Origin: an uncultured Gammaproteobacteria bacterium
Lineage (GTDB): Bacteria; Patescibacteriota; Patescibacteriia; Magasanikbacterales; GWA2-37-8
NCBI GenBank assembly: GCA_964540825.1
Contig: CAZINT010000004.1
Location: 24,835-88,834 of the forward strand
Direction: 5' to 3'
Length of the DNA: 64,000 bases
Part shown: positions 2,381-48,491 of the stretch, one piece after another
Position numbering within the stretch: the stretch's first letter is position 1
Layout: each line of letters opens with the position of its first letter
Made by a program: the position numbers and the translations under genes
Notes under the pieces: generated by a model
The model's database searches: none
Told to the model about the DNA's origin: nothing
The model's input: only the letters and a program-made list of their open reading frames with translations

Positions 2381-3253
2381 ATGCGACAATACCTCGACAT
2401 TGTTCAGAATGTTTTAGATAACGGACTCGAGAAGGACGATCGCACCGGCGTCGGCACCATCGCTATCCCGGGCGCTTTTTTTCAGCATGATCTTAAAAAC
2501 GGTTTTCCACTTCTTACTACCAAAAAAATTCCGTTTCGCCTCATCGCCACTGAACTCGAATTTTTTATTAAAGGCATCACCGATAAACAGTGGCTCATTG
2601 ATCACAATAATCATATCTGGGATGAATGGGCTCACCCCAAAAAAGCCCCCTACGGCCACGACGAAGCAAGTAAAAAACGCATGCGCGACGAACGCGACCT
2701 CGGGCCGATTTATGGTTTTCAGTGGCGGCACTTTGGCGCCAAGTACGTTTCGTACGATACCGATTATACCGGCCAGGGCGTAGATCAGCTTCAAAACCTG
2801 GTGAACACACTCAAAAAAAATCCATCCGACCGCCGCATGATTGTTAATTCCTGGAACCCGGTCAGCTTGCCAGAAATGGGTTTGCCGCCCTGCCACTATT
2901 GTTACCAAGTAACCGTTATCAAAGGACGCCTCAATTTATTTTGGAACCAACGTTCCGTCGACACCATGCTGGGCCTGCCGTTTAACATTGCCAGCTATGC
3001 GCTTCTCCTCCACCTGCTCGCTAAAGAAGCCGGGCTTGAAGAAGGTGCGCTCACCGGCTTTTTAGCTGATGTACATATTTATAAAAATCACCAAGCCGGA
3101 GCACGCGAACAATTGACGCGCGACCCGAACATGTACCCATTACCAAAACTTGTCACCAACAACTTTACGTCTATTTTCGACTGGAAAGCAGAAGATACCG
3201 AAGTGGTTGGGTACGAAAGCTATCCACGCATCGCTTTTGAAATCGCAGTCTAG
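2381..3253 (+). CDS. thyA: Thymidylate synthase
   Basis: 290 aa; ThyA active-site region with PPCHYCYQ, and DRRMIVNSWNP. Confidence 0.95.
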   Translation: MRQYLDIVQNVLDNGLEKDDRTGVGTIAIPGAFFQHDLKNGFPLLTTKKIPFRLIATELEFFIKGITDKQWLIDHNNHIWDEWAHPKKAPYGHDEASKKRMRDERDLGPIYGFQWRHFGAKYVSYDTDYTGQGVDQLQNLVNTLKKNPSDRRMIVNSWNPVSLPEMGLPPCHYCYQVTVIKGRLNLFWNQRSVDTMLGLPFNIASYALLLHLLAKEAGLEEGALTGFLADVHIYKNHQAGAREQLTRDPNMYPLPKLVTNNFTSIFDWKAEDTEVVGYESYPRIAFEIAV

Positions 3254-3256
3254 TCT

Positions 3257-3730
3257 ATGATCACGCTTATTGCCGCTATTGCTGAAAATAATTGTATTGG
3301 CTCTCACAATACACTTCCTTGGAATATACCCGAGGATCTTAAACATTTTCGAGATCTTACCCGCGGCAAAACCGTTCTTATGGGCCGCAAAACATTCGAT
3401 TCGATTATTGCCCTCAACGGTAAACCGCTCCCCAACCGTCTCAATATCGTTGTTACCAAACAAGACAATTTTACTGCCCCGGAAGGTGTTGAAATTTTTC
3501 ATACCATCGACCAAGCTCTCAGCGCTCACAGCGACGAAGATCTCTGGATTATTGGCGGCTCACAAATCTATCAGGAAACAATTGCTCGCGCCAACCGCCT
3601 TGAAATTACCCATATTCACCAAACCGTTGAGGGCGACGCATTTTTCCCAGCCATTGATCCACTGCTTTGGCAAGAAGTAGCGCGAGCTGATTACGATGGA
3701 TTTAGTTTTGTCACCTACGACAAAAAATAA
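3257..3730 (+). CDS. folA: Dihydrofolate reductase
   Basis: 157 aa; MITLIAAIAENNCIGSHNTLPW and GRKTFDSI motifs. Confidence 0.85.
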   Translation: MITLIAAIAENNCIGSHNTLPWNIPEDLKHFRDLTRGKTVLMGRKTFDSIIALNGKPLPNRLNIVVTKQDNFTAPEGVEIFHTIDQALSAHSDEDLWIIGGSQIYQETIARANRLEITHIHQTVEGDAFFPAIDPLLWQEVARADYDGFSFVTYDKK

Positions 3731-3739
3731 TGTATACTT

Positions 3740-4462
3740 ATGCAGTACAGCGGCAAATTCATCGTGCTCGACGGTACCGAAGGATCGGGCAAAAGCACCG
3801 TCGTTGATTTTTGGAAAAAAAATCTGGAAGACCAGGGCAAAAAAATCTTTGATCTCAAAGCGTACTGGAAAAAACACGATGCACAGCCAACAGTCGAAGA
3901 GGTCTTGGCAGCCGACATTATTTTTAGTGCCGAGATGAGCTACACCGGCATCGGCAAAGTGCTGCGCGAAGAATTAATTTGTAAAGGCACTGACTATCCA
4001 GCACTTGCCATTGCCGAAGCCTATGCGCTCGACCGCATGATTTTGTACAAAAAGTTTTTTATTCCTGCACTCGCTGCCGGCAAAACTATCATCTCCGACC
4101 GATCAGTCAGTACTTCACTGGTGTACCAAACCATTTCCGACCCGAGCATTACCTACGAAACGATTAGGAAGCTCCCCGGTAATGCTGTTGCTTTATCGTA
4201 CCCACCAACCGACCTCATCCTCTTTCAACTTGACCCTGAAGTCGGCTTGGCTCGCCTCGCTTCGCGTTTTGATAAAAACGATAACGCCATATTTGAAGAA
4301 GCAAATTTCCAAAAAAAGGCCTACGCCAAATTCATGGAGCCGGAATTCCAGAATATTTTTAAAGACCTGGGAACAACAATTCATTATTTGGCAGCAGACG
4401 CTGAACCTGCTATACTGCAAGCAAATTCACTCGTGCTTCTGAACCAGATACTTGCACGTTAA
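3740..4462 (+). CDS. tmk: Thymidylate kinase-like
   Basis: P-loop LDGTEGSGKST and an overall Tmk-like layout, next to thyA and folA. Confidence 0.75.
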   Translation: MQYSGKFIVLDGTEGSGKSTVVDFWKKNLEDQGKKIFDLKAYWKKHDAQPTVEEVLAADIIFSAEMSYTGIGKVLREELICKGTDYPALAIAEAYALDRMILYKKFFIPALAAGKTIISDRSVSTSLVYQTISDPSITYETIRKLPGNAVALSYPPTDLILFQLDPEVGLARLASRFDKNDNAIFEEANFQKKAYAKFMEPEFQNIFKDLGTTIHYLAADAEPAILQANSLVLLNQILAR

Positions 4463-4488
4463 ACATTTAACTCATTTAATTTTTCGTT

Positions 4489-5313
4489 ATGCTTCTTTCC
4501 GTATCGGAAATTCTGAAAGACACCTTTCGCCTCTATGGCAAAAATTGGCGCATTATTCTGCCTTACTGCGCGCTGGTATTTGTTCCGGCGGCCATTTTGG
4601 CATTGCTCGGCGTTGGCAGTGTCTACCTTACAACGATTCTTCCCACCTCTGACCTTATTAATAATATTGTCATAGCCCTTCTCAGTGTCGGAAGTTGGTT
4701 TATTGGCTACTGGGCAATGCTCGGACTTGCGCTTGCGACCAAAGACATGCTCGAAGGTCTCCCGCTTCCCACCTGGAAACAAGGGCTGGCTGCGACCGGC
4801 AATGTGGTGCTTCCGATTCTTTGGGTCTCATTTTTAACCAGTCTTTTTGTCGGCCTCTGGACCCTCCTTTTTATTATCCCGGGTATTATCTTTAGTCTTT
4901 ACTACGTATTTAGCGGTTACAGCGTGCTTTTCGACAACCAGCGCGGCTTTGGCGCTCTGCGCTTCAGCAAAGCCCTCGTCAAAGGACGTTGGTGGTCAGT
5001 TGCCTGGCGCGTTGGAGCGACCGGACTTCTCTTTGGCATCCTGGTAAGTATCCTTGTTTTTATCCTAACAGTTCCTTTCACCGTTATTTTATCCATGAAT
5101 TCCATTGACGCTTCGGCCATCCAGGAAGCAGGCCGTACCCTCAGCACCACCGAAGTACTGGCCACCATGATGGCGGGCATCATGAGCAGCCTCGGCAAAG
5201 CGCTTGCCGGGCCGCTCGCGACCATTGCGCTCGTTATTATCTATCACGATATTCGCAAAAACCCACTTCCAGCAGTTGTGCCCGGGACGCTGACACCGCC
5301 CACCAACGCCTAA
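4489..5313 (+). CDS. Polytopic membrane protein, function unknown
   Basis: Six or more hydrophobic helices; no recognisable motif. Confidence 0.5.
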   Translation: MLLSVSEILKDTFRLYGKNWRIILPYCALVFVPAAILALLGVGSVYLTTILPTSDLINNIVIALLSVGSWFIGYWAMLGLALATKDMLEGLPLPTWKQGLAATGNVVLPILWVSFLTSLFVGLWTLLFIIPGIIFSLYYVFSGYSVLFDNQRGFGALRFSKALVKGRWWSVAWRVGATGLLFGILVSILVFILTVPFTVILSMNSIDASAIQEAGRTLSTTEVLATMMAGIMSSLGKALAGPLATIALVIIYHDIRKNPLPAVVPGTLTPPTNA

Positions 5314-5321
5314 TATCTACT

Positions 5322-5353
5322 AAAAAACAGCCCTTCCTCAAGGCTGTTTTTTA
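5322..5353 (+). terminator. Rho-independent terminator
   Basis: aaacagcc-cttcctcaa-ggctgttt followed by a T-run. Confidence 0.8.
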
Positions 5354-5407
5354 TTTGCCAAAAGATACCTAAAATGGTACGCTCAGAGTACTTTTCTCTT
5401 GTTTTTT

Positions 5408-6955
5408 ATGCCAAAACTCATTCCTATTATCGGTCTTGAAATTCATGTCGAGCTCAAAACTAAATCTAAGATGTTTTGCTCGTGCGTGAATGACCCTTTT
5501 ATTGATACGCCAAACACCAATATTTGCGAAGTCTGCCTGGCGCACCCCGGCACCCTTCCGGTACCAAACAAAATCGGTATTGTCGGCGCGATTGGAATCG
5601 CCAAAGCCCTTAACTGCACCATCGCAAAAACAAGCAAATTTGATCGCAAACATTATTTTTACCCCGATCTTCCCAAGGGTTACCAAATTTCTCAGTATGA
5701 CCAACCTATTGGTGAACACGGTTTTATTGAACTTGAAATAGCAGGCGCAAACCATCGTCCTACTGCTCGTATTGGCGTGACGCGCGTCCATATGGAAGAG
5801 GATACGGCCAAACTTGACCATGCTGCTAGTGGCACTGCTTTGGTTGATTTTAACCGTGCCGGGGTACCACTCGTCGAAATTGTTTCCGACCCCGATGTTG
5901 AAAGCGCTGCCGAGGCCAAGGCCTACTGTCAGGAACTCCAGCTCATTTTCCGCACCCTTGGCGTCAGTAATGCTGATATGGAAAAAGGCCAGATGCGCTG
6001 CGAAGCAAACATCTCTCTTCAAGCGGAAGGCAGTTATACAAATGTGAACGGTGTGATTACCCCCAATGAAGGTGTCAGACTTAACTCCAAAGTTGAAGTA
6101 AAAAATATCAACTCCTTCCGCGCTGTTGAGAAGGCGATTGAGTTTGAAATTAAACGACAGACCGAACTGATTGAAAAAGGCGAAACGTGGATCCCCGAAA
6201 CACGCGGCTGGGATGAAAAAAAACAAGCTACCATCCATCAGCGCAGCAAAGAATCGAGCGCTGATTATCGTTATTTCCCTGAACCGGATATTCCACCGTT
6301 TAACCCGTTGCTGCTTAGTGAAGCAGTTATTTTGCCTGAACTCCCCCAAGCCAAACGCTTACGTTTTGTAACTGAATATGGCTTTTCTAAGGCTGACGCC
6401 CAAATCCTCACCAGCGATCCGGAATGGGCAATTTTCACTGAAAACGTCATGAGCGAACTCACCGAATGGCTGCACTGTCTCCCTGAGAGCAAGGATGACA
6501 GCCCGGAAGTACATCAGAATAAAAAGCAGCAACTGGCGAAGCTTGCCGGCGGCTGGCTCACCACCAAACTCATGGGTGCCATGGCCGAGCGCAAAACTGA
6601 CATCCGCATCCTCCGCATTAAAGAAGAGAACTTTGCCGAACTGATGGCGCTTATTTACACCAACCGCGTCAACTCCACCAACGCGCAAAAAATCCTTATC
6701 GAAATGCTTGATTCTGGTGTCGATATGGACCCAACGCATATCATGGAAGACAAAGGGTATGGACAGATTAGCGACGAAGGCAAACTTGGCACCGTAGCGG
6801 ACGATATTATCAAAAACCATCCAGAACAGGTCGCTCAATTTAAAGCTGGCAAGGAACCGATTATCAAATTCCTCGTCGGCATGCTCATGAAAGCGACCGA
6901 AGGAAGTGCAGACCCGCAGATAGCCGAAAAATTGCTCCGGGAAAAGATGCGGTAA
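5408..6955 (+). CDS. gatB: Asp-tRNA(Asn)/Glu-tRNA(Gln) amidotransferase subunit B
   Basis: GatB motifs (IGLEIHVEL, FDRKHYFYPDLPKGYQISQ) and a C-terminal GatB_Yqey-like domain. Start taken at MPKLIP. Confidence 0.9.
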   Translation: MPKLIPIIGLEIHVELKTKSKMFCSCVNDPFIDTPNTNICEVCLAHPGTLPVPNKIGIVGAIGIAKALNCTIAKTSKFDRKHYFYPDLPKGYQISQYDQPIGEHGFIELEIAGANHRPTARIGVTRVHMEEDTAKLDHAASGTALVDFNRAGVPLVEIVSDPDVESAAEAKAYCQELQLIFRTLGVSNADMEKGQMRCEANISLQAEGSYTNVNGVITPNEGVRLNSKVEVKNINSFRAVEKAIEFEIKRQTELIEKGETWIPETRGWDEKKQATIHQRSKESSADYRYFPEPDIPPFNPLLLSEAVILPELPQAKRLRFVTEYGFSKADAQILTSDPEWAIFTENVMSELTEWLHCLPESKDDSPEVHQNKKQQLAKLAGGWLTTKLMGAMAERKTDIRILRIKEENFAELMALIYTNRVNSTNAQKILIEMLDSGVDMDPTHIMEDKGYGQISDEGKLGTVADDIIKNHPEQVAQFKAGKEPIIKFLVGMLMKATEGSADPQIAEKLLREKMR

Positions 6956-6967
6956 AATTATTTAAAT

Positions 6968-6992
6968 AGCCCGTAAACACGGGCTATTTTTT
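6968..6992 (+). terminator. Rho-independent terminator after gatB
   Basis: agcccg-taaaca-cgggct followed by T6. Confidence 0.8.
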
Positions 6993-7029
6993 ATAAAGTG
7001 CACACTTTAAGTATGTGGACAACACACCT

Positions 7030-7137
7030 TTGACGCACCTGCAATACCCTGCTACACTTAAACGTATGAAACCTATCCTCCCTCACAACCCCTTCCTTTC
7101 CTAGTTGTCGGCCACCCGTATATGGGTGGTTTTTTTA
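7030..7137 (+). promoter_or_regulatory. Pyrimidine (pyrBI-type) transcription attenuator: promoter, leaderless 12-codon leader peptide and intrinsic terminator
   Basis: TTGACG 7030-7035, 17-nt spacer, TACACT 7053-7058. The ORF MKPILPHNPFLS* at 7066-7104 starts about 1-7 nt after the predicted transcription start, and its RNA is C/U-rich. The terminator ccaccc-gtatat-gggtgg plus U7 at 7113-7137 lies 20 nt before the pyrB ATG. Confidence 0.6.
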
Positions 7138-7156
7138 TAAACAAACTTCGCTCTCT

Positions 7157-8080
7157 ATGAAGATACCTTTTACAGGCCGCGATATTATTTCCATCGGCGA
7201 GCTGACCACGCAAGATATTCTTACAGTTCTAGCGACAGCCAAAAAACTTAAGGCAAAACCTCAACCTACCCTGCTCAAAGGTTTAACTATGGCCAGCTGT
7301 TTTTTTGAGCCCTCCACACGAACGAGGCTCTCGTTTGAAACTGCTATGCAAAAACTGGGTGGTCAGGTAATTGGTTTTGCGGACCCAAGTGCTACATCAA
7401 CCAAAAAGGGTGAAACACTCCATGACACGATCAAAATGGTCGAAGGGTATGCGGATATTATTATTCTACGGCATTACCTGGAAGGCGCTGCGAGGCGAGC
7501 CGCCGAAGTAAGCAGCAAGCCGGTCATTAATTGTGGTGACGGCGCCAATCAACACCCTACCCAAACATTGATCGATCTGTATACTATTCAGGAGTGCCAG
7601 AAAAAATTAACCGGCCTTAAAGTTGCGCTTGTCGGCGATCTCAAATACGGCCGCACCGTACATTCCTTGGCCGAGGCACTCACCCATTTTGGAGCACGCC
7701 TCTATTTTGTTGCCCCCGAAGCACTCGCTATGCCAAGCCAGGTAACCAGCCACCTTAAAAAACAAGAGGTTGTTTTTTCTGAACATCAAACAATTGAAAC
7801 TGTTATTGAAGATGTCGATATTGTCTACATGACTCGCATCCAAGCCGAACGCTTTGCCGATCCTTATGAATACGAACGAGTCAAAAATATTTTTGTTCTG
7901 GCTCCTAAAACCTTAGAAAAAAGTAAAAAAAATTTACGCATTTTGCACCCGCTTCCCCGTGTAAACGAAATTATGCCGGAAGTCGACGTATTGCCTCAAG
8001 CCTATTATTTTGAACAAGCGGCCAACGGCGTCTTCGTGCGTCAAGCGCTTTTAGGGCTCATCTCGGGTAAACTAAAATAA
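7157..8080 (+). CDS. pyrB: Aspartate carbamoyltransferase catalytic subunit
   Basis: STRTR and HPxQ motifs; 307 aa. Confidence 0.95.
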   Translation: MKIPFTGRDIISIGELTTQDILTVLATAKKLKAKPQPTLLKGLTMASCFFEPSTRTRLSFETAMQKLGGQVIGFADPSATSTKKGETLHDTIKMVEGYADIIILRHYLEGAARRAAEVSSKPVINCGDGANQHPTQTLIDLYTIQECQKKLTGLKVALVGDLKYGRTVHSLAEALTHFGARLYFVAPEALAMPSQVTSHLKKQEVVFSEHQTIETVIEDVDIVYMTRIQAERFADPYEYERVKNIFVLAPKTLEKSKKNLRILHPLPRVNEIMPEVDVLPQAYYFEQAANGVFVRQALLGLISGKLK

Positions 8081-8085: not shown

Positions 8086-8559
8086 ATGATTACTACAGCA
8101 AATCCCCACCTCCAGGTTGCGGCCATTAAACACGGCACGGTGATCGACCACATCAGCGATAAACACGCCCTTAAAATTATTCAACTGCTTCACCTGGCGA
8201 GTGGCGGAACGACGGTCACCGTCGGACTCAATTTGCCGAGTAAAAAAATGGGCTCTAAAGACCTGATTAAAATTGCTGACAGAGAAATTAGTCTCGAAGA
8301 GGCAAATCGCATCGCCCTATTTTCTCCTGAAGCAAGCATTAACATCATCCGCAATTTTAAAATAGTTAAAAAATTTGCAGTTACGTTGCCTAAAAAAATT
8401 TCGGGCCTGCTGGTTTGCCCAAACCCAAAATGTATTACCAACCACGAACTGATGACAACACTGTTTACTGTCGAGAAAAACAAAAAAACCATTGATCTTG
8501 TATGCACCTATTGTGAAAAATTATTTGAGCGAGACGAAATCCAAATCTACCCAACATAG
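8086..8559 (+). CDS. pyrI: Aspartate carbamoyltransferase regulatory subunit
   Basis: 157 aa; C-terminal zinc domain CPNPKC...CTYCE. Confidence 0.9.
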   Translation: MITTANPHLQVAAIKHGTVIDHISDKHALKIIQLLHLASGGTTVTVGLNLPSKKMGSKDLIKIADREISLEEANRIALFSPEASINIIRNFKIVKKFAVTLPKKISGLLVCPNPKCITNHELMTTLFTVEKNKKTIDLVCTYCEKLFERDEIQIYPT

Positions 8560-8571: not shown

Positions 8572-9750
8572 ATGCGTATTCCAACATACCACGGACAATG
8601 GATTGAAGCGCCCCAAGTGTTTTCCGGCCAGCGTTTACTGGCGCTGCCGGCCGTGATTGATTGTCACGTTCATTTCCGCACACCGGGACAAGAATACAAA
8701 GAAGATTGGATTACCGGTGCGGCAGCTGCTCTGGCTGGCGGCGTCACGACTGTTGGTGACATGCCGAATAATGTACCAAGCATTACCACTGCAAAACTTC
8801 TTGCGACTAAGAAAGAATTAATTACGGGTATACTTACTAAACATAATCTAAAAATACACCCTTATTTTTATTTTGGCGCAACTAATACCAATTTTGAAGA
8901 AATTAAAAAAGTTGCGGATGAAATTATTGGCATCAAAGTGTTCCTCGGATCAAGTACCGGGGACTTATTAGTAGACGATCCCGCCGCTCAAGAAAAAATC
9001 TTTGCGCTCGCGCACGAACTTGATCTACCGGTAGCAGTTCATGCAGAGGATGAAGCCTTGATCCTACACAACAAAAAAGAATACCCGCATCCAGAGCTTC
9101 GTGATCACTCAGTGATCCGATCACCTGAAGTCGCCGCCCACGGGGTGGCACGGGCCATTGAATTGTGCGAACGTTTTGGTGCAAAAATATATATTCTGCA
9201 TGTCAGTACGCCCGGCGAGCTCAACTTGATCAGAAAAGCTAAGCGTGAAGGGCTGCCGGTTTTCGCTGAAGCAACACCACATCATCTTTTTTTAACTACC
9301 GACGATTACGAACGCCTTGGCAGCAAGGCTCAGATAAACCCGCCACTTCGGATCGCAGCTGACCAAGCCGCGCTCTGGCAGGCTGTTATTGACAGAACAA
9401 TCGACACCGTCGCTTCAGATCACGCACCGCACACACTTACAGAAAAATATATAGCATATCCAGAATCCCCCTCTGGTATGCCGGGTGTTGAAACACTACT
9501 ACCCCTTCTCTTAGATACACATGCACAAGGCAAACTAAGCCTGGAGCGGATCGTCGAGCTTACTCACACCAACCCACAAAAAATATTTGGTTTACCCGAA
9601 ACTCATGACTGGGTAATTGTTGACCTGGACGGAACATGGACCATTGACGACGCTGCACTTAAAACTAAATGTGGCTGGTCAACTTTTGCCGGCAAAAAAC
9701 TACAAGGGAAAATCCTTGGCATTGTTTCAAATACCTTACCTCTAGCTTAA
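8572..9750 (+). CDS. pyrC: Dihydroorotase
   Basis: Amidohydrolase metal-ligand motifs DCHVHFR and DHAPH; 392 aa. Confidence 0.85.
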   Translation: MRIPTYHGQWIEAPQVFSGQRLLALPAVIDCHVHFRTPGQEYKEDWITGAAAALAGGVTTVGDMPNNVPSITTAKLLATKKELITGILTKHNLKIHPYFYFGATNTNFEEIKKVADEIIGIKVFLGSSTGDLLVDDPAAQEKIFALAHELDLPVAVHAEDEALILHNKKEYPHPELRDHSVIRSPEVAAHGVARAIELCERFGAKIYILHVSTPGELNLIRKAKREGLPVFAEATPHHLFLTTDDYERLGSKAQINPPLRIAADQAALWQAVIDRTIDTVASDHAPHTLTEKYIAYPESPSGMPGVETLLPLLLDTHAQGKLSLERIVELTHTNPQKIFGLPETHDWVIVDLDGTWTIDDAALKTKCGWSTFAGKKLQGKILGIVSNTLPLA

Positions 9751-9756
9751 TTGTAT

Positions 9757-10848
9757 ATGATTATCAACTGGTTCCCGGAGCATCCACCCCTCTATGATAT
9801 AACTAAAAGCTACCACGACAATGCCGAGCATGGACCATTCTTTGCCGGCGTCATTCCCGAACGCATCTGGCCAACCACCTCGACCTGGAACGATTTTTTG
9901 GGTTTCAAAGTTGCTTCAAAAATCGGTGTTCCCGCCGGACCACTTCTCAATTCCAAGTGGACAACGCTCGCCGGAAAACTAGGCTATGATATTGTTACCT
10001 ACAAAACCATTCGGAGCCAAGCAATGGCAGGCCACCCCCTCCCCAACATGCTCTATATTGATGTACCAGGCGGCAGCGATATCCGCACTACCGGGGACAC
10101 CGTAACAGTTAGGAGCAGCCTTCCCGGTAGCATGGACGAGCTGGCCGTTACCAACTCATTCGGTATGCCCTCTTACTCGCGCAATTTTCTTCTTGAAGAT
10201 ATTGATCGGGCGAAAAAAGCTTTGCATGCCGGGCAAATACTGATCGTATCGATCGTCGGCACGCCGCGGCCAGGCGAAGACTTTATAGAAGATTTTGTTC
10301 AGGCTGCCCTCATTGCCAAAGAAGCCGGGGCACCGATTATCGAAGCCAATTTTTCTTGCCCCAATGTTTGCCGTGGTGAAGGCAGTATTTTTACCAATCC
10401 TGAAACAGTCTCTACTATCAGTAAGCGCATCGTTGCCGCACTTGGCGCAGGCATTCCGCTCATTATTAAGGTGGGCACCTACGCTGATACCACACTCATG
10501 AAAAAAGTTTTCCTGGCTGCCGCCGACGCCGGTGTACGGGCGATTGAAGGCATCAATACCGTTGGACGCAAAGTTGTCACCCCTACCGGTGAACCGGCGC
10601 TTGGCGCCGAGCGACTCACAAGCGGGATTTGCGGTGGTCCGATCCGCCAGGCAGCAGTGGATTTTGTAAGGCAAGGGCGAGAAATTATTACCCGCGAAAA
10701 ATTAGACCTTACCCTCATCGGCGTTGGCGGGGTTACAAACCCGGAACATTTTAATGCATTTTTTGAAGCGGGCGCCGACGCCGCACTGGTCGCAACAGGC
10801 ATGATGTGGAACCCTTACCTTGCAGCCCAATTTCATACTCATACTTAA
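9757..10848 (+). CDS. pyrD: Dihydroorotate dehydrogenase (class 1-like)
   Basis: TIM-barrel DHOD motifs (NxSCPN, GGV...). The ORF opens with TTG at 9751; ATG 9757 was chosen as the start. Confidence 0.85.
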   Translation: MIINWFPEHPPLYDITKSYHDNAEHGPFFAGVIPERIWPTTSTWNDFLGFKVASKIGVPAGPLLNSKWTTLAGKLGYDIVTYKTIRSQAMAGHPLPNMLYIDVPGGSDIRTTGDTVTVRSSLPGSMDELAVTNSFGMPSYSRNFLLEDIDRAKKALHAGQILIVSIVGTPRPGEDFIEDFVQAALIAKEAGAPIIEANFSCPNVCRGEGSIFTNPETVSTISKRIVAALGAGIPLIIKVGTYADTTLMKKVFLAAADAGVRAIEGINTVGRKVVTPTGEPALGAERLTSGICGGPIRQAAVDFVRQGREIITREKLDLTLIGVGGVTNPEHFNAFFEAGADAALVATGMMWNPYLAAQFHTHT

Positions 10849-10858
10849 TCTGTATTCT

Positions 10859-11503
10859 ATGGATACGAGTGAATCAATTGCCACCATGCTTCTTGACCTC
10901 AAAGCAGTCACACTCAGCGTCGACCCTCCCTTTACTTGGTCGTCAGGAATTAAGTCCCCTATTTATTGCGACAATCGCCTGCTCATTTCTTTTCCGGAAG
11001 CACGAAAAAAAGTAATCGAAGGTTTTAAGCAAATTATTGCTGAAAAAAATATTGTCTTTGATGTGGTTGGAGGCACTGCAACCGCCGCTATCCCTTGGGG
11101 AGCATTCCTGGCGTATGAGCTCGATAAACCCATGGTGTATATTCGCCCCGAGCCAAAAGGTCACGGTACCGGCAAACAAGTGGAAGGAACGATGCAGCAG
11201 GGTGCGCGCGTACTCATTATTGAAGATCTGGTTTCGACCGGTGGGAGTTCACTTACATCTGCAGCCGCTTGCGCCCGAGAATATAATGCGGTTATTACTG
11301 ACGTGCTTGCAATTTTTAGTTATGAAATGCAGGAAGCAGAAAATGCTTTTACTGAAAAAAATATTCGTCTCACGACATTGAGTTCGTTTTCGAAGTTGCT
11401 CTGCACAGCTGAAACAAAAGGATACATAAACGAAAAGGAAAAATCCACCGCTCTTTCCTGGAGTAAAGACCCGCGCGGCTGGTTTGAAACTATTTCTAAG
11501 TAA
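10859..11503 (+). CDS. pyrE: Orotate phosphoribosyltransferase
   Basis: PRPP-binding motif VLIIEDLVSTGGS. Confidence 0.9.
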   Translation: MDTSESIATMLLDLKAVTLSVDPPFTWSSGIKSPIYCDNRLLISFPEARKKVIEGFKQIIAEKNIVFDVVGGTATAAIPWGAFLAYELDKPMVYIRPEPKGHGTGKQVEGTMQQGARVLIIEDLVSTGGSSLTSAAACAREYNAVITDVLAIFSYEMQEAENAFTEKNIRLTTLSSFSKLLCTAETKGYINEKEKSTALSWSKDPRGWFETISK

Positions 11504-11510
11504 ACTCACT

Positions 11511-12329
11511 ATGAACGCTCTTGAAAAACTGGAACGAAGTATTAAAAAAAATAATTCACTCGTGTGCGTCGGCCTTGATCCTGAAATAGCAAAGCTTCCT
11601 GAACAATTTAAAAATTCCAATACTCCACAGTTTGATTTTAATCGAGCGATCATCGATGCCACGCACGACCTCGTCTGTGCCTATAAACCAAACCCCGCAT
11701 TTTATGAAGCACGCGGTGCGGATGGCATCCGTGAATTAAAAATGACTTGCGACTATATTCGTGAAACGTATCCGGATATTTTTCTCATTTTGGATTTAAA
11801 ACGCGCCGATATTGGCAATACCAGCTGCGGTTCGGCTGAGTTTGGCTTTGATTATCTTGGTGCAGACGCAGTAACCCTGAATCCGTACCTTGGTAGCGAC
11901 GCGCTTGCTCCCTACCTCGAGCGGGCCGACAAAGCATCGTTCATCCTCTGCCGCACGTCCAATGCCGGTAGCGGCGAAATTCAAGACTTATTGGTTGATG
12001 GTGTACCGCTCTACCAAAAAATTGCTTTAAAAATTGCCACCGAGTGGAACAAAAATAAAAACTGTGGCTTGGTTGCTGGCGCCACGTATCCTACTGAACT
12101 TGCGACTGTCCGCCACCTTGCAGGCGATCTGCCTATTCTAACACCCGGTATTGGTGGCCAAGGCGGCAGCGTTGAAGCCATACTTAAGGCCGGGTTAACA
12201 CCGCAAAAAACCGGTCTCATCATCAATTCTTCGCGAAGTATTATTTTTGCCGGTAGCGGCAAAGATTTTGCCGAAAAGGCCAGATCTGCCGCTTTGGAAC
12301 TCCGCAAAGAAATACATAATTTTTGCTAA
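11511..12329 (+). CDS. pyrF: Orotidine 5'-phosphate decarboxylase (long/type-2 form)
   Basis: VCVGLDP, DLKRADIGNT and the rest of the OMPdecase fold; 272 aa. Confidence 0.85.
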   Translation: MNALEKLERSIKKNNSLVCVGLDPEIAKLPEQFKNSNTPQFDFNRAIIDATHDLVCAYKPNPAFYEARGADGIRELKMTCDYIRETYPDIFLILDLKRADIGNTSCGSAEFGFDYLGADAVTLNPYLGSDALAPYLERADKASFILCRTSNAGSGEIQDLLVDGVPLYQKIALKIATEWNKNKNCGLVAGATYPTELATVRHLAGDLPILTPGIGGQGGSVEAILKAGLTPQKTGLIINSSRSIIFAGSGKDFAEKARSAALELRKEIHNFC

Positions 12330-12354
12330 TTTTAGCCAAAATAGTTTGTACACC

Positions 12355-12413
12355 TCTTGACAAAAGGGGTGTTTTTTGATAGGATGGAGCGTTGCTCAAA
12401 TACGGAGGTTTCC
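12355..12413 (+). promoter_or_regulatory. Sigma-70-like promoter plus a strong Shine-Dalgarno in front of the high-GC gene
   Basis: TTGACA-17-TAGGAT, then GGAGG 7 nt before ATG 12414. This contrasts with the Shine-Dalgarno-poor neighbouring genes. Confidence 0.5.
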
Positions 12414-35685: not shown

Positions 35686-37533
35686 TTAGTAAAGATTAAG
35701 TCTTCCCTCCTCAAATTTTTTAGTATCTAAGCGGCTGTTTTCATTTAACCAATTTAAGAAGTTGTCACGTCTTGCACCATTCATCAGCTGCACCTGTGAC
35801 TTAACTCCAAACATCGGGAACGCATATGCTTTTTTAACCACCCCGTCTTGCAGCACCAAGCCCACGCTCAATCCTTCTTGCGTTTCCTCGGAAAAATACT
35901 GATCAAAAATAAAGTTGCCGAGCGAATAGAAAATCGGTTTACCTTTATAGATCTCGCTTTCTTCAATCACATGCGGATGGGCCCCAATAACTGCGCTGAC
36001 GCCCTGATCGATGAAACTATGCGCCAGATCACGTTCTTGCTGACGCGAAATGCGCTGATATTCGACGCCCCAGTGCATCATCACAATAATATAGCGTGCT
36101 TTTGCCTTGGCATCTTTAATCGCGGCCGAAATTTTTGCCGTATCCATAGGGTGATCGGTCGTATTAATCCCGATAAAAGCAATTTGTTCGTCGCTGCTTG
36201 GCAGCTTGGAAAACCAGGTATACTCCGGCCCTTCACGTAGTTCGTCGCCAAAATATCCGATACCAGCCTTATTGAGTGTCTCGTGGGTAAAATCCACATT
36301 TGCCCAGCCCATATCGAGCGTGTGGTTGTTGGCCAGGCTGACTGCGGTAAAACCGTAATCCTTAATTTGATCAGCCAATTTTGGATCGAAACGAAAAGCA
36401 ATTGTTTTAGTCGTGGGCACACGTGTTGGTGCAAACGGGCCTTCGAGGTTGGCAATCAAAAAATCCATACCCTTGAAAAACCGATTTTCTTGCCCTTTAA
36501 GCTTGGCAAAAAGATAATCCAATCCTTCGCTCCCAAAGGCTTTGGCAACATTACGGTCAAGCATTATGTCGCCAAAAAACTGTATTGTGGTAATCGGCGT
36601 CTCTGTCGATTTTCCAGCGGTGTAATAGCCAATTATATGACTCGTCGTTTCAGTCGTGGTTGGATTTTGACTTATTGTTCCGCTGTTGGTTGATGAAAGT
36701 AGCGTAAACTTTTGAGCCTGTAGTATCTGGTTATAATAGAGCAAAAAATATAAACTTTTTGGACTGTCTACTTCCAGCTTACTAACACGATCCAGATCGC
36801 CGACTGCCAAAACATTGCGTGATAATTCATCATGAAAACTCGCGACCGCTTCAGGCAGGTAATGCGAAAAATCTACGCTCGCGAGCACCAAACTATTTTT
36901 TGGTAAAATCTCAGTCAAAGTTTTGGCAAGCTGTTCAAGCGTCGAAGTGGGTGTATTCTCTTTTACAATCAGCGGTACGATTTGAGCATTTTTCCACGTA
37001 CGCTTAATAAACGGCACGTCAGCCCCAATCGTGTGCTCCGGATCAATCACTGTTTCATCAACTGCCGCAATTTTTTGATCCACCAGTTTTTGGACGATAT
37101 CCTGATCAACATTTAAGGTGCCATAGGGTGTTTTCCATGCACCAAGACTCGTAATAACGGGGCTACGTCCGGCTTGGGCATGGTTGGGACCCACAAGGAC
37201 CACGATCGGCGGATTTTGCTCGGCAAGTGCATTAAAAAAACGAGCTTCGTAGACCCCGGCTACCAAGTGATGAGGAATAACACCCGAGACAACTTTTTCT
37301 TTGGCAGCTACGGCCTTATTAGTTTCTGCCGCAATAAAATAGCGGTCATACACTGCAGGGTCAAGAAAGCTGGCCTTGTGTTCGACACGGGGCAATTCGG
37401 ATGAAGCGTGAAACCACGAAATTGATCGAGTGTCGGGGGTGCTCGGAGTATTTTTTTTGAAGAACCACAGCCCTCCAATTACTGCCCCAAGTATCAATAA
37501 AACCCCGGTTATTCTGGTGATTTTGAGTATCAT
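35686..37533 (-). CDS. Membrane-anchored fusion: MEMO1/AmmeMemoRadiSam-B-like domain plus CapA (PgsA-type poly-gamma-glutamate synthesis, metallophosphatase-like) domain
   Basis: N-terminal transmembrane helix. Residues ~90-300 show a Memo-like pattern (VIPHHLVAG...GPNH). Residues ~320-600 show CapA motifs (FFGDIMLDR, LANNHTLD, MHWGVEY, GAHPHV, SLGNFIFDQ). Confidence 0.65.
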   Translation of the reverse strand: MILKITRITGVLLILGAVIGGLWFFKKNTPSTPDTRSISWFHASSELPRVEHKASFLDPAVYDRYFIAAETNKAVAAKEKVVSGVIPHHLVAGVYEARFFNALAEQNPPIVVLVGPNHAQAGRSPVITSLGAWKTPYGTLNVDQDIVQKLVDQKIAAVDETVIDPEHTIGADVPFIKRTWKNAQIVPLIVKENTPTSTLEQLAKTLTEILPKNSLVLASVDFSHYLPEAVASFHDELSRNVLAVGDLDRVSKLEVDSPKSLYFLLYYNQILQAQKFTLLSSTNSGTISQNPTTTETTSHIIGYYTAGKSTETPITTIQFFGDIMLDRNVAKAFGSEGLDYLFAKLKGQENRFFKGMDFLIANLEGPFAPTRVPTTKTIAFRFDPKLADQIKDYGFTAVSLANNHTLDMGWANVDFTHETLNKAGIGYFGDELREGPEYTWFSKLPSSDEQIAFIGINTTDHPMDTAKISAAIKDAKAKARYIIVMMHWGVEYQRISRQQERDLAHSFIDQGVSAVIGAHPHVIEESEIYKGKPIFYSLGNFIFDQYFSEETQEGLSVGLVLQDGVVKKAYAFPMFGVKSQVQLMNGARRDNFLNWLNENSRLDTKKFEEGRLNLY

Positions 37534-44127: not shown

Positions 44128-47100
44128 TTATGGTTGATATTCGACAACATCATTCGCATCAGCTGGCTTGTTTTTTTCAAGTTCGGCGCGGACTTCTTCG
44201 GCTGGCAGATATTCGCCGGACTCTGTTTTCTTAAGAAGACCAACATCAAGACACAAACCTTTCAATTCACGTACAAGCACATTGAAAGATTCGGGAATAT
44301 TAACGCGGCTGACTTCTTCACCTTTAATAATCGCTTCATAGGCTTTCGAGCGACCCGGTACATCGTCAGATTTAATGGTAAGCATTTCCTGCAACGTGTG
44401 TGCGGCGCCATATGCTTGAAGCGCCCACACTTCCATTTCACCAAAGCGCTGTCCACCGAACTGAGCTTTACCACCAAGCGGCTGCTGGGTAATAAGCGAG
44501 TATGGACCAATTGAACGCTGGTGAATTTTATCTTCGACCATGTGGTTCAATTTCAGCATGTAGTTGTAACCAATGGTAGTTTTGTGATCGAAGGCTTCAC
44601 CTGTGCGACCATCGTAGAGCTGCACCTGGCCGCTTTCCGGGAAACCGGCTTTTTTGAGTTCATTTTTAATCTGTTCTTCAGTAAGACCATTCAACACGGG
44701 AGTAGCGATCTTGTAACCAAGCGCATTGGCAGCAAGGCCAAGGTGTGTCTCAAGCAGCTGACCCAAGTTCATACGGGACACGACACCGAGCGGCGAAAGG
44801 ATGATGTCAACCGGAGTACCATCTTCAAGGAACGGAAGGTCGGCAACCGGAACGATGCGCGACACGACACCTTTGTTACCGTGGCGTCCGGCCATCTTAT
44901 CACCAACCTGGAGCTTGCGAAGGTCGGCAACGGTGACCTGCACTTTCTTGATCACACCCGGTTCAAGTTTGTCACCATTTTCGGCCGAGAAAATCTGCAC
45001 ACCAATAACTTTTCCGTGTTCACCATGTTCGAGGTAGAGGGAAGAATCGCGAACATCGCGTGCCTTTTCACCAAAGATAGCGCGGAGCAGGCGTTCTTCT
45101 GGGCTGAGTTCGGTTTCACCCTTAGGTGTAATCTTACCAACCAAAATATCACCGGATTTAATTTCGGCACCAATGCGGATAATACCTTCGCTATCAAGAT
45201 TCTTGAGTTTTTCTTCACTGACGTTTGGAATATCGGCCGTCACGAGCTCAGGTCCAAGCTTGGTTTCACAGACATCCACAGTATAGTCTTCAATGTGGAT
45301 AGAAGTATAGCAATCCTGCTGCACGAGGCGCTCGGAAATAATTACGGCGTCTTCGTAGTTAAAACCTTCCCAGCACATGTAAGCAACCAGCATGTTTTGA
45401 CCAAGAGCAAGTTCGCCTTCGCGAATCGAAGGACCGTCAGACAATGGCTGACCTTTTTTGACTTTTTCACCGACGTTCACGACCGGGTGCTGGTCGATAC
45501 AGGTGGAAGCGTTGGAGCGAATAAATTTATTTAAATTGTAGGTATAGTTTTGACCCTTTGGTGTGGTAAGCACAATGTGACCACCATCAACTTCGGTAAT
45601 TTCACCATCAGCTTCAGCCAAAACCATATGACCCGAGTACATTGCCGCTTCACGTTCAATACCTGTTCCAACAAGCGGAGGTTCCGGTTTGATACATGGT
45701 ACACTCTGGCGCTGCATGTTCGTTCCCATCAGAGCGCGGGTCGCGTCGTCATGTTCAAGAAAAGGGATGCAGGATGTTGCGATACTTACGATCTGGTTTG
45801 ACGCCACATCGACATAGTCAAGATCAACTGAGGCCGAAACACCAGCAGCACCGTTAACGCGCGCTGGCACGGTTTCCTGAGTAAAGTAGCCGTCATCATC
45901 AGTTTTAACACTCGCCGCAGCAGTAATAACTTTTTCTTCTTTGAAAGAATTGAGGTAGACAATTTCATTGGTTAGACGAGGTTTAACCGGAATCTTTTCA
46001 ATTTTTTCGCTCTTAAGTTTAGCGGCAATTTCTTTGGTAATTTTAGTGCCGTCTTTAACGCTGCCAATGTCACCGCGGAGAATTTCGCCTTCAGCAAGTT
46101 TGCCGTCGTTCGCAACTTCGCGGAGCACTTTGCGGTACGGAGTTTCAATAAAACCAAAATCATTGACGCGAGCATAGCTCGAGAGGTGGTTAACGAGACC
46201 AATGTTCGGTCCTTCTGGAGTAGCAATCGGACAAATACGGCCATAGTGCGTGGTATGCACGTCACGTACTTCAAAGCCGGCGCGGTCGCGCGACAAACCG
46301 CCGGGACCCAAAGCAGACAAACGGCGTTTGTGCTCAAGTTCAGCCAGTGGGTTGGTCTGGTCCATGAACTGGGAGAGCTGCGAACTCATGAAGAACTCGC
46401 GAATAGCACTTGTTACCGGGCGCGCATTGATAAGCTTGTTTGGAGTGAGCTGTTCAAGCTCATAAGTGCTCATGCGATCTTTAATGATACGCTCCATACG
46501 AGCGAGACCAACACGAAAACGATTCTGAGCAAGTTCACCTACCGCGCGAATACGGCGGTTGCCAAGATGATCCACATCATCTGGTTCTTCCTGGGTAACG
46601 TTCAGGCGAACAACTTCTTTTAAAACTTGGAGTAATTTTTCTGGCGACAACACGCGATTTTCTTTCTTGTCGTAATCAGCTTCGGTGTAGCCAAGATCAA
46701 ATTTGGTATTGAATTTATACACACCAACGCGGCCCAAATCGTAGCGATCAAAGTTGAAGAACATGGCGTAGATAAGACTCTTGGCATTGTCAGCGGTCGC
46801 AAGATCACCCGGGCGAATACGTTTGTAGACTTCGATAAGACCTTCTTCCTGAGTCTTGGCAATATCTTTTTTGAACATTGCTTCGACGTAGTCAATTGTT
46901 GGATGGTTATTAACGTCTTTGAAAGCTTCAATCAATTTTTCATCCTCATGCATACCAAATGCACGCAGCAGTGACGTTGCCGACACTTTGCGTTTGCGGT
47001 CTACCTTGATCCACATCACGTTGCTGAGGTCGGTTTCTACTTCGATCCAAGCACCGCGGTTCGGGATAATTTTAGCGCCATAATAGCGGCGTCCACGAAC

Positions 47101-47565
47101 GTTTTCAGCGGTAAAGAAGGCACCGGCAGAGCGGATAAATTGGGAAACAACCACACGTTCGATACCGTTGATGATAAACGTACCGCGTTCGGTCATGATT
47201 GGAATATCACCCAAATAAATTTCTTGAGACTTGGATTGGTTGTCGCGTTTGTTAACCAGGCGGGTCACAGCGCGAAGCGGTGCTTCGAAAGTAATATTAC
47301 GTTGGCGGCAGGTAACTTCGTCAAAACGCGGTTCGTCAAGGTAATAGCTTTCTAAGTAGAGTTCAAGGTCGCGACCGGTAAAATCGGTAATTGGCGACAC
47401 TTCTTCAAACAATTCTTTGATGCCGGATTTTAAAAACCAGTCATAAGAGTTCTTTTGGAGCTCGATAAGGTCAGGAAGCGGCTGGTGCTCCATGTGCTCC
47501 GTAAAAAATTTACGATCCAAATTTTTACTGGTCTGATGCTTGAAGCGAGAAGGCATAGAGTGCAT
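44128..47565 (-). CDS. rpoB: DNA-directed RNA polymerase subunit beta
   Basis: 1145 aa with conserved beta-subunit regions throughout. Confidence 0.98.
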   Translation of the reverse strand: MHSMPSRFKHQTSKNLDRKFFTEHMEHQPLPDLIELQKNSYDWFLKSGIKELFEEVSPITDFTGRDLELYLESYYLDEPRFDEVTCRQRNITFEAPLRAVTRLVNKRDNQSKSQEIYLGDIPIMTERGTFIINGIERVVVSQFIRSAGAFFTAENVRGRRYYGAKIIPNRGAWIEVETDLSNVMWIKVDRKRKVSATSLLRAFGMHEDEKLIEAFKDVNNHPTIDYVEAMFKKDIAKTQEEGLIEVYKRIRPGDLATADNAKSLIYAMFFNFDRYDLGRVGVYKFNTKFDLGYTEADYDKKENRVLSPEKLLQVLKEVVRLNVTQEEPDDVDHLGNRRIRAVGELAQNRFRVGLARMERIIKDRMSTYELEQLTPNKLINARPVTSAIREFFMSSQLSQFMDQTNPLAELEHKRRLSALGPGGLSRDRAGFEVRDVHTTHYGRICPIATPEGPNIGLVNHLSSYARVNDFGFIETPYRKVLREVANDGKLAEGEILRGDIGSVKDGTKITKEIAAKLKSEKIEKIPVKPRLTNEIVYLNSFKEEKVITAAASVKTDDDGYFTQETVPARVNGAAGVSASVDLDYVDVASNQIVSIATSCIPFLEHDDATRALMGTNMQRQSVPCIKPEPPLVGTGIEREAAMYSGHMVLAEADGEITEVDGGHIVLTTPKGQNYTYNLNKFIRSNASTCIDQHPVVNVGEKVKKGQPLSDGPSIREGELALGQNMLVAYMCWEGFNYEDAVIISERLVQQDCYTSIHIEDYTVDVCETKLGPELVTADIPNVSEEKLKNLDSEGIIRIGAEIKSGDILVGKITPKGETELSPEERLLRAIFGEKARDVRDSSLYLEHGEHGKVIGVQIFSAENGDKLEPGVIKKVQVTVADLRKLQVGDKMAGRHGNKGVVSRIVPVADLPFLEDGTPVDIILSPLGVVSRMNLGQLLETHLGLAANALGYKIATPVLNGLTEEQIKNELKKAGFPESGQVQLYDGRTGEAFDHKTTIGYNYMLKLNHMVEDKIHQRSIGPYSLITQQPLGGKAQFGGQRFGEMEVWALQAYGAAHTLQEMLTIKSDDVPGRSKAYEAIIKGEEVSRVNIPESFNVLVRELKGLCLDVGLLKKTESGEYLPAEEVRAELEKNKPADANDVVEYQP

Positions 47566-48144
47566 TTATTTTAGCGCTTTTTTAGAAGCTTTGAAATAAA
47601 GGAAAATAAACAAAAAATGAGCAAAACCTAGCTAGATTTTACTTTTTTACAAAACAATGACTGCTGGTGGGGGCAAGGTTTGCATTAAATTGACAAACAG
47701 TTAATACCTTGCGCGCAGCTTTTCCGGATGGACATTTGGCGGACCGGAGGCCACACTTTTTTGGCTTATTTGAGCTATTTTTCTGCAAATTACAGAACAA
47801 GCTCTCAGCAGACTGATTATATGAAAAAAACGAAGTGTTGTCAAGGGATGATACAAACAGTTATTTTGTCAATAATTTGTTATTTTTTTGCTAAAATAAA
47901 GGTTTTACAAGCTTTTACTATCAATGAACCACAAAAATTATCCACAGCTTCAGAACGGTCGCGCACCCACCTGTGTGCTTTGCACTGGGTCCGGCAACAC
48001 TGGATGCACTTTTTTAATTTTACCCTATGTCGAAATAAGACGCAGCCGCGGCAGCACGCTTACTCGTTTTTACAGGTCCTTTGGCTCCTAAATTTTAAAA
48101 AAATCGTCTTATTATATAAAATTGAATTAGTTTTTCTTATCCAC

Positions 48145-48398: not shown

Positions 48399-48417
48399 GT
48401 AGTCATTTATGAGCGAA

Positions 48418-48491
48418 GTACTAAGCAGATTAAGCAGAGTAGGCGAAGTAAGTAGTGTTACTTGCTTAATCTGCCTAGCACTTACTCTGCC
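48418..48491. repeat. Palindromic interspersed repeat, copy B
   Basis: gtactaagcagattaagcagagtaggcgaagtaagtagtgttacttgcttaatctgcctagcacttactctgcc; same module set as copy A, in rearranged order. Confidence 0.65.

Follow-up and report, generated by a model that had tools for sequence, protein, structure and literature searches.

A predicted ribosome-dependent transcription attenuator ahead of the pyrBICDEF operon in Candidatus Magasanikbacteria

The gatB–pyrB leader compared with known attenuators

The described systems that most resemble the element reported here are the pyrBI and rph-pyrE attenuators of enteric bacteria. The element itself is a short leader between gatB and pyrB in a 64-kb stretch of DNA (the window) whose host, judged by its PyrB homologues, belongs to Candidatus Magasanikbacteria (Patescibacteria, or Candidate Phyla Radiation, CPR). 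It had been described in an earlier prediction (hereafter the original prediction) as an E. coli-type pyrBI attenuator outside the Enterobacteria. The best explanation of this leader, in which we place somewhat better than even confidence, is that it forms a ribosome-dependent (translation-coupled) transcription attenuator controlling pyrBICDEF.

The reach of a ribosome over a terminator has been defined in E. coli: placing the stop codon 5 instead of 28 bp before the terminator lowered termination from ~90% to <10%, uncoupled translation restored termination, and no ribosome effect was seen beyond 27 nt (PMC4824070). Amino-acid attenuators keep >20 bp between their open reading frame (ORF) and the terminator (PMC4824070). 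In rph-pyrE there is no antiterminator, and the ribosome itself plays that role. We read the wild-type E. coli junction directly: rph ends GCA AAC TGA; TTTTT comes next, then the stem AAGGCGACT/AGTCGCCTT with T8, giving 5 nt between stop and stem. The rph-1 frameshift of K-12 shifts the stop upstream and lowers pyrE expression (PMC2784333).

The proteobacterial comparison was drawn from the matches listed by a PyrB profile search of genome contigs, which came mostly from Bacteroidales and Proteobacteria and included two Patescibacteria. Among the matches listed, an intrinsic terminator precedes pyrB in Enterobacterales, Aeromonas, Oceanisphaera, Vibrio and Aquitalea, and is absent from nearly all Bacteroidales and archaeal loci. 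Attenuation before pyrB is thus not confined to Enterobacteria, as the original prediction had implied, and it is the occurrence in CPR that is new. The pyrL ORFs of these listed matches have 30–48 codons, and the enterobacterial ones carry a Shine–Dalgarno (SD) sequence (GGAGG or GGAG) and an AATTTG start region. They run through the hairpin in Pseudescherichia, end inside it in Erwinia, Serratia and Photorhabdus, and stop 3 nt before it in Vibrio. The Pfam family PyrBI_leader (PF08052) matches the Pseudescherichia leader (L014; E = 6e-16); it matched neither the Vibrio leader nor that of one relative of the window (L099). Three Vibrio leaders (L065, L066 and L068) lie outside this family, which therefore covers only part of the functional class.

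We read positions 6700–7400 of the window directly (Table 1; coordinates are those of the 64-kb window), and every element named in the original prediction (promoter, ATG, ORF, hairpin, T tract and pyrB) is present where it had been placed. The TTGACG-17-TACACT sequence was found as described; its −10 hexamer (7053–7058) is preceded by TGc, making an extended −10 box of what we regard as a predicted promoter. The first base of the ATG (7066–7068) lies 8 nt past the last −10 base, with 7 nt between them. Transcription could plausibly start at A7066, in which case the mRNA would be leaderless or almost so. The ORF, which is predicted to be translated, reads ATG AAA CCT ATC CTC CCT CAC AAC CCC TTC CTT TCC TAG and encodes MKPILPHNPFLS. 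Its stop codon is separated from CCACCC by TTGTCGG, such that the gap, which had been given as 8 nt, is really 7 nt if measured to the core stem, or 5 nt if the extended stem is taken. The core stem (CCACCC, 7112–7117; GGGTGG, 7124–7129) encloses GTATAT and is followed directly by T7 (7130–7136), and the pyrB ATG at 7157 lies 20 nt past the end of the T tract, in agreement with the original prediction. On folding, this terminator was the sole stable structure of the leader (minimum free energy −15 kcal/mol). No antiterminator appeared, whether the leader was folded alone or together with the start of pyrB. The hairpin is not the terminator of gatB, since gatB has its own at 6964–6995, which is placed to shield the pyr promoter from transcription coming from upstream.

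Much of this anatomy is shared with enterobacterial pyrBI: a promoter of its own, a leader ORF, and a terminator ~20–25 nt before the pyrB of a PyrB/PyrI-type aspartate carbamoyltransferase (in Pseudescherichia L014 the T tract lies ~20 nt from pyrB, as in the window). Additionally, pyrimidines abound and G is scarce in the 40 nt that precede the hairpin (78% pyrimidine in the window, against 55–80% in Enterobacterales and 50–80% over the proteobacterial pyrBI leaders), and neither side has an antiterminator. However, whereas enterobacterial PyrL has 35–48 codons (44–48 in the K-12 type), an SD sequence and an ORF that runs through or into the hairpin, the window ORF has 12 codons, no SD sequence and a stop before the hairpin. 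The enterobacterial loci have AATTTG after the −10 box for reiterative transcription; no T run was found in the initially transcribed region of the window, which reads (T)ATGAAACC. The hairpin sequences are unrelated (GGCCACCC in the window, AGCCCCTC in enterobacteria), and BLASTP of the 12-aa peptide against PyrL gave no alignment. What stands of the E. coli-type description is therefore the ribosome-dependent anatomy before pyrB, but not a K-12-type pyrL geometry or homology to PyrL.

Two other arrangements come closer in geometry. In the Vibrio pyrBI leader (L065, ~2390–2480) 3 nt separate the stop from the hairpin, with a T tract and pyrB coming next, although that ORF has 30 codons and belongs to a proteobacterium. 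In rph-pyrE the stop of the upstream ORF lies 5 nt before the stem, a distance matched in the window if the extended stem is taken (7 nt for the core). The window differs from rph-pyrE in having a dedicated 12-codon mini-ORF with its own promoter and a predicted SD-less initiation at the 5′ end, in a CPR host, and in placing pyrB-I-C-D-E-F rather than pyrE alone behind the terminator; the two share no sequence homology. We conclude that the element would work as pyrBI and pyrE do, without belonging to the PyrL family. Since the hairpin sequence, ORF, start region and mode of initiation all differ, an independent origin is likelier than transfer. Leaderless short-ORF attenuators are also known in Actinobacteria, among them the leader peptides of Corynebacterium and the Cys-responsive upstream ORFs of mycobacteria (bioRxiv 10.1101/834739). 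They resemble the window in that a short ORF at the mRNA 5′ end leads a biosynthetic operon; they respond to an amino acid by means of regulatory codon runs, whereas the window leader lacks such codons and its peptide differs in each lineage.

Several classes of RNA regulator were considered and rejected. Rfam gave no credible family in 6900–7250 at E ≤ 10, the weak matches falling on the gatB terminator, and over the whole window at the gathering threshold it found only a tRNA. Neither search found PyrR, which bears out the earlier statement that Bacillus-type PyrR sites are absent, and the operon contains no pyrR gene, its phosphoribosyltransferase being pyrE. Riboswitch, PyrR-type and aptamer models were rejected because folding gives the terminator hairpin only, and a trp- or his-type amino-acid attenuator because there are no regulatory codon runs and no antiterminator, and the stop lies 5–7 nt from the stem. 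A dispersed repeat or an element of the repetitive extragenic palindromic (REP) type was ruled out because the hairpin pattern is single in the window. With no alternative structure, PyrR site or Rfam match, a translating ribosome is the only conserved feature able to oppose the terminator.

Conservation of the leader among relatives

The pyrB loci of 12 relatives were compared. Eight related loci from six diverged lineages share the architecture of the window (alignment A2), with PyrB 66–89% identical (L091/L092, 89%; L093, 75%; L099, 69%; L095, 68%; L100/L101, 67–68%; L096 and L098, 66%; L101 is a duplicate of L100). All eight keep the promoter, an ATG 7–12 nt past the −10 box, an ORF extending as far as the hairpin, and that hairpin itself with its T tract ~20 nt before pyrB. 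Three promoter columns are invariant: T(−15), which belongs to the TG extension, A(−11) and T(−7), corresponding to T7050, A7054 and T7058. Further invariant columns are a T that immediately precedes the start codon, the greater part of the hairpin stem and the T tract; the motif TATG is common to all aligned loci except the misaligned L099 and L095. The leaderless ORF of the original prediction fits the window and L091, with 7 nt from the −10 box to the ATG, but the 9–12 nt of the other relatives imply an untranslated region of ~2–5 nt.

In contrast to the ORF as such, the peptide is free to change: ORF interiors are 30–50% identical between lineages and the peptides are unrelated. The 12-codon ORF of the window and L091 (MKPILPHNPFLS) ends in TAG, 7 nt before CCACCC (8 nt in L091). 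Its counterparts have 11 codons: MKNLTLQLISL with TGA in L093, MINFFTKIYFH and MINIFTKIYLH with TAA in L096 and L098, and MKKYTHKRKLF with TAA in L100/L101, each stopping 7 nt before CCACCC. Thus, in four lineages an ORF of 11–12 codons ends exactly 7 nt before CCACCC by way of TAG, TGA or TAA, and they differ in length only once, by 3 nt in frame. In L095 the ORF is 17 codons long and its stop abuts the hairpin; that of L099 has 23 codons and continues past the stem and T tract to a TAA right behind them, like E. coli pyrL. Both variants would still bring a ribosome to the hairpin. As in enterobacterial pyrBI, translation of the leader ORF would place a ribosome on the hairpin or beside it: the stop lies 5–7 nt before the stem in four lineages and abuts it in L095, and the ORF reads through in L099. 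We found no Asp, Gln, Asn or other codon bias shared among the leader peptides, and no repeats. The original prediction had proposed a survey of whether the ORF and terminator are conserved upstream of pyrB in related genomes; both are kept in related Magasanikbacteria, while the peptide varies, an outcome in favour of an attenuator.

How much of this could arise by chance was assessed for each part. By itself the promoter pattern lacks significance (5 occurrences in 3 kb, with 4.5 expected). The hairpin pattern has a single occurrence in the 64 kb, and 100 shuffles produced none. For the ORF we used composition-preserving shuffles of each locus. An ATG ORF that starts ≤15 nt from the −10 box and ends 0–9 nt before the hairpin has P = 0.009–0.025 per locus, and one ending exactly at +7 has P = 0.001–0.003. 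The loosest criterion, an ATG ≤15 nt from the −10 box and an ORF that reaches the hairpin, gives P = 0.04–0.10 per locus and is positive in 6/6 lineages; the product of these values (1.6e-7) overstates the significance, since the loci that bear the ORF are homologous and not independent. The shuffle P values are a measure of conservation through near-saturating divergence, not of independent origins. Taken together, the comparative evidence appears decisive for non-randomness.

One relative bears directly on whether the hairpin is regulatory at all. In L002 (64% identical; 2440–2500) there is no promoter or mini-ORF, and gatB ends TAA TAA 5–6 nt before a homologous hairpin (GCCACCC..TGGTGGC with T8), with pyrB 19 nt downstream. 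This could mean that the hairpin acts constitutively, as a leaky terminator or an insulator, and is a relic or backup of the gatB terminator that damps the pyr operon, the short ORF being incidental. Indeed, L093, L096, L098 and L100 have no separate gatB terminator, such that their hairpin would stop gatB transcripts too, and stretches that are G-poor and rich in pyrimidines or A/T hold few stops, so that ORFs arise easily, as the P values under the loosest criterion illustrate. However, in the window gatB is terminated separately and a conserved promoter follows; a second terminator 70 nt into the transcript from that promoter would make sense only as a control point. Furthermore, the ATG, frame, 11–12 codon length and stop position have been kept despite near-saturating divergence and the exchange of TAG, TGA and TAA. 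Even L002, where a full-length gene stops 5–6 nt before the homologous hairpin, has the arrangement of rph-pyrE, which is itself regulatory. For these reasons we consider a leaky terminator with an incidental ORF unlikely.

The hairpin recurs upstream of pyrB in nine related loci, and its stem (CGGCCACCC...GGGTGG) is far better conserved than the ORF. Such a pattern might be expected if a trans-acting RNA-binding protein or small RNA, of an unnamed family with a PyrR- or TRAP-like function, bound the stem CGGCCACCC or the G-free leader. The leader is single-stranded and compositionally odd, and C/U-rich single strands are typical protein-binding sites. But apart from the ATG and stop no leader motif is common to the lineages, there is no PyrR site or Rfam family, and a bound factor would have no alternative structure to stabilise. 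Enterobacterial pyrBI stems are equally conserved in sequence without a protein factor, and a trans-acting factor would leave the conserved start, frame and stop unexplained. We regard it as very unlikely. Over-called PyrB N termini in two further loci (P0081 and P0063) translate across hairpin-like sequence (GHPKRVAVFL and RPRGGIF), which indicates that the hairpin is probably present there as well; they are uninformative on the ORF.

Outside the eight loci the region differs. The metagenome relatives L082–L088 (56–61% identity) are without the leader, and L094 and L097 have different intergenic regions upstream of pyrB. In L094 (2000–2500) pyrB is preceded by 520 nt containing the repeated G/C palindromes CCCCTCCCC-TATG-AGGGGAGGG and CCTCCCCC-TCAT-AGGGGGAGG, with no T tracts; this looks like an insertion of the REP or miniature inverted-repeat transposable element type in place of the attenuator.

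A proposed race between ribosome and RNA polymerase

The mechanism that we favour is as follows. Transcription would start at, or a few nucleotides before, the AUG of a G-free, unstructured ORF of 11–12 codons. The 5′ arm of the terminator begins 46 nt after the A of that AUG, and RNA polymerase would reach the terminator 20 nt before pyrB. Because there is no antiterminator structure, the default outcome would be termination. Read-through would require that a ribosome be loaded at the 5′ end without an SD sequence, as for most genes in this genome, and that it arrive at the stop codon before polymerase has moved off the U tract. A ribosome with a stop codon in its A site covers roughly 6–9 nt beyond the codon. 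Parked at the stop, 5 nt from the base of the stem, it would thus cover the 5′-most stem nucleotides (the GGCCACCC arm), whose pairs close next to the U tract and are required for termination.

It follows from this scheme that the slower RNA polymerase is relative to the ribosome over the ~70-nt leader, the more read-through there would be. In so short a leader the ribosome would win only if polymerase is slow, and therefore read-through would be sensitive to the nucleoside triphosphates (NTPs) that the leader consumes. Its transcription takes only A, C and U (mostly C and U in the window) and then U7, such that low uridine or cytidine triphosphate (UTP or CTP) would slow polymerase in the window's 66–78% pyrimidine leader and at U7. 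Pyrimidine NTPs are thus a plausible signal, although the argument from composition does not generalise: between the −10 box and the hairpin, pyrimidines make up 66% in the window, 57% in L093, 53% in L096, 37% in L100 and 33% in L095. The C/U-rich leader of the original prediction is accordingly found in the window, but it cannot serve as a general basis for UTP/CTP pausing, since it falls to 33–37% in relatives. What every lineage does have is a stretch rich in U just ahead of the stop codon, together with a U6–U8 tract.

The conserved compositional trait is instead G-lessness. In the ORF interior (7069–7101 in the window, and its homologues) G is absent from four lineages (0/33, 0/30, 0/30 and 0/30) and occurs once in L100 (1/30); at a G frequency of ~0.21 the chance of a G-free interior is roughly 1e-3 per lineage. 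A leader without G would be unable to form pairs with the terminator's C-rich 5′ arm, and would stay open for SD-independent initiation.

The same traits could be read differently, with the attenuator unchanged but answering to translation capacity or growth state, such that a fast ribosome turns the operon on and a slow one off through the rate of initiation or elongation, guanosine triphosphate (GTP), charged tRNA or release factor. It is the G-free, unstructured, translatable leader that is conserved and not its pyrimidine richness, the ORF carries no regulatory codon runs, and in a short leader the outcome would be set mainly by how fast a ribosome loads at the 5′ end. Set against this, the controlled genes serve solely pyrimidine de novo synthesis, the U-rich stretch before the stop and the U6–U8 tract are present in every lineage, and pyrBI and pyrE, the two studied attenuators of this geometry, sense UTP (PMC4824070; PMC2784333). 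A signal of this kind is, in our estimation, distinctly unlikely.

A more radical alternative detaches the element from pyrB altogether: promoter, ORF and terminator would form an independent small gene, for a ~70-nt small RNA or a 12-aa peptide, and pyrB would have a promoter of its own within the A/T-rich 20 nt that follow the T tract. Sequences resembling a −10 hexamer are indeed present past the T tract, both in the window and in its relatives (for example TATAAA at 7135–7140), and trans-acting attenuator small RNAs and leader peptides are known, such as rnTrpL and peTrpL (PMC6614838; PMC7298713). Yet the peptide is not conserved, the element always lies ~20 nt before pyrB, and past the T tract there is no −35 box, TG extension or invariant −10 position, unlike in the promoter upstream. 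We find this barely credible.

Having set these alternatives beside the ribosome-dependent attenuator, we note several points that weigh against the latter, in addition to the non-independence of the loci mentioned above. Promoter use, the transcription start, termination, translation of the ORF and the effect of a ribosome on the terminator are all deduced from sequence. The L099 ORF is out of frame with the conserved TAA, and the stop position is thus not absolutely fixed. The leader is missing from other Magasanikbacteria (L002, L097 and the P0004 locus, where carB abuts pyrB) and from the more distant Patescibacteria L003. With ~70 nt from start to release, a ribosome would have very little time to initiate and read 12 codons, and pausing of polymerase, itself hypothetical, would therefore be needed. 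The A-rich leaders of L100/L101 and L095 show that pyrimidine richness is not conserved, and NTP sensing may rest on the U tracts only, or the signal may be another altogether. Lastly, a weak promoter may lie in the A/T-rich 20 nt past the T tract, although nothing in that segment is conserved in the alignment.

If the ribosome-dependent attenuator is correct, transcription–translation coupling serves metabolic control in CPR, and the enterobacterial logic of "repression without repressors" arose independently in a much smaller form (11–12 codons, ~70 nt, initiated at the 5′ end). Gene regulation in CPR/Patescibacteria is almost unexplored; their genomes are small, with few transcription factors, and the organism studied here has almost no SD sequences. 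The literature searched contained no paper tying CPR to attenuators or leader peptides. A miniature, SD-less, G-free attenuator with rph-pyrE-like stop geometry in CPR would be new, while its logic is known from pyrBI and pyrE. It would also make a compact, testable model of how closely a ribosome must trail RNA polymerase to defeat a terminator.

A bolder version of the idea can be put forward as speculation, and we think it unlikely to hold as a whole: that a CPR subclade independently evolved a ~70-nt attenuator in which a G-free, SD-less, 5′-initiated ORF of 11–12 codons races polymerase, that the device reads the balance of purine and pyrimidine NTPs, and that DnaA bound at an adjacent box ties pyrBICDEF both to NTP pools and to replication initiation with no dedicated regulator. 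Since the leader needs no GTP for its transcription while the ribosome runs on GTP, a direct readout of the purine/pyrimidine balance would be possible.

The DnaA-box-like site and genomic context

The candidate DnaA box is a further feature of the leader-bearing loci. With the consensus TTATCCACA (TTWTNCACA), a 9-mer with ≤1 mismatch is found at −140 to −154 from pyrB, in either orientation, in 8/8 of them. It is TTGTCCACA on the minus strand in the window, L091 and L093, TTATCCACA on the minus strand in L100, TTATGCACA on the plus strand in L096 and L098, TTATTCACA in L099 and TTATCCACA in L095. The distance to the −35 box is 7–8 nt in the window, L091, L093, L096, L098 and L100/L101, and 10–33 nt in L095 and L099. 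No such 9-mer was found at this position in the leaderless L002, L094 and L097. The background density of DnaA-like 9-mers is 0.34 per kb, and TTRTCCACA has two matches in 64 kb. A general promoter element was rejected, because the DnaA-like box is rare in the window and does not occur at other promoters.

This conservation suggests a second input, at the level of initiation, by which DnaA or a factor of similar specificity would act on pyrimidine synthesis; in the mechanism proposed above, the site beside the −35 box would probably add control at initiation. DnaA regulates nrdAB and the gua operon, and no pyr operon is among the targets in a review of the subject (PMC8203912). The window shares with the DnaA-regulated nrdAB and guaBA of E. 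coli a DnaA-box-like 9-mer that lies, at a nucleotide-synthesis operon, a short way upstream of the −35 box, but differs in having a single candidate box. The site is thus a candidate link between replication initiation and pyrimidine synthesis. Elsewhere in the window, eight DnaA-box-like 9-mers with ≤1 mismatch fall within 5 kb (45174–50170), with a perfect TTATCCACA at 47938, in or near rpoB, a 161-aa ORF and ftsK. An origin of replication at 45–50 kb was rejected, since the boxes fall in rpoB, rpoC and ftsK and there is no switch in GC skew; their clustering is probably due to chance. Between the gatB terminator and the DnaA-like box lies a palindrome, AAAGTG-CA-CACTTT (6995–7009), that is not kept in L091.

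The leader fits the general mode of initiation in this genome, which the original prediction had rightly called SD-poor: an SD-like motif is present at ~3/53 gene starts over the whole window. Many ATGs lie 6–9 nt past a −10-like hexamer (for example at 50856, at 57885 and at 35686–37533 on the minus strand), which suggests that leaderless or short-untranslated-region mRNAs are widespread in this CPR genome. Given starts poor in SD sequences and −10-like boxes so close to ATGs, initiation that is SD-independent or at the 5′ end would be normal here.

Table 1. Features of the gatB–pyrB leader and its surroundings in the 64-kb window
Feature	Position	Strand	Details
gatB	5399–6955	+	Upstream neighbour of the leader; stop codon 6953–6955
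gatB intrinsic terminator	6964–6995	+	AAATAGCCCG-TAAACA-CGGGCTATTT with T run, 3′ of the gatB stop
DnaA-box-like 9-mer	7014–7022	−	TTGTCCACA; 7 nt upstream of the −35 box; candidate transcription-factor site
Predicted promoter, sigma-70 type	7030–7058	+	−35 TTGACG (7030–7035), 17-nt spacer, extended −10 TGcTACACT (7050–7058)
Leader ORF (predicted)	7066–7104	+	MKPILPHNPFLS; 12 codons and TAG (7102–7104); no SD sequence; no G inside
Spacer, stop to terminator stem	7105–7109	+	5 nt to the extended stem, 7 nt to CCACCC
Intrinsic terminator (predicted attenuator)	7110–7136	+	Stem GGCCACCC/GGGTGGTT (7110–7131), loop GUAUAU, U7 (7130–7136)
pyrB	7157–8080	+	Aspartate carbamoyltransferase catalytic chain (TIGR00670, 380 bits); first gene behind the attenuator
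pyrI	8086–8559	+	
pyrC	8572–9750	+	
pyrD-like gene	9751–10848	+	
pyrE	10820–11503	+	Phosphoribosyltransferase
pyrF	11484–12329	+	
Operon-end terminator	12350–12377	+	ACACCTCTT-GACAA-AAGGGGTGT with T run; stem 12350–12372
thyA	2381–3253		In the block just upstream
folA	3257–3730		In the block just upstream
tmk	3740–4462		In the block just upstream
274-aa protein	4489–5313		In the block just upstream; no family match

The genes behind the attenuator, pyrB-I-C-D-E-F, are tightly packed with no terminators in between and form a complete uridine monophosphate operon. Ordinary gene ends in this genome carry the same kind of intrinsic terminator as the leader. The hairpin at 7110–7131 is the only terminator in the window that follows a mini-ORF and directly precedes a gene, barring the operon-end stem, which touches the TTG start called mechanically for an ORF at 12357.

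Two further observations concern the neighbouring genes. Together with pyrBICDEF, the block at 2381–6955 makes up 10 kb largely given to pyrimidine and deoxythymidine monophosphate metabolism. The pyrD-like gene has a mechanically called TTG start and encodes 365 aa, of which only residues ~130–355 match DHO_dh; the protein is below every NCBIfam cut-off, and its N-terminal ~130 aa are without assignment.

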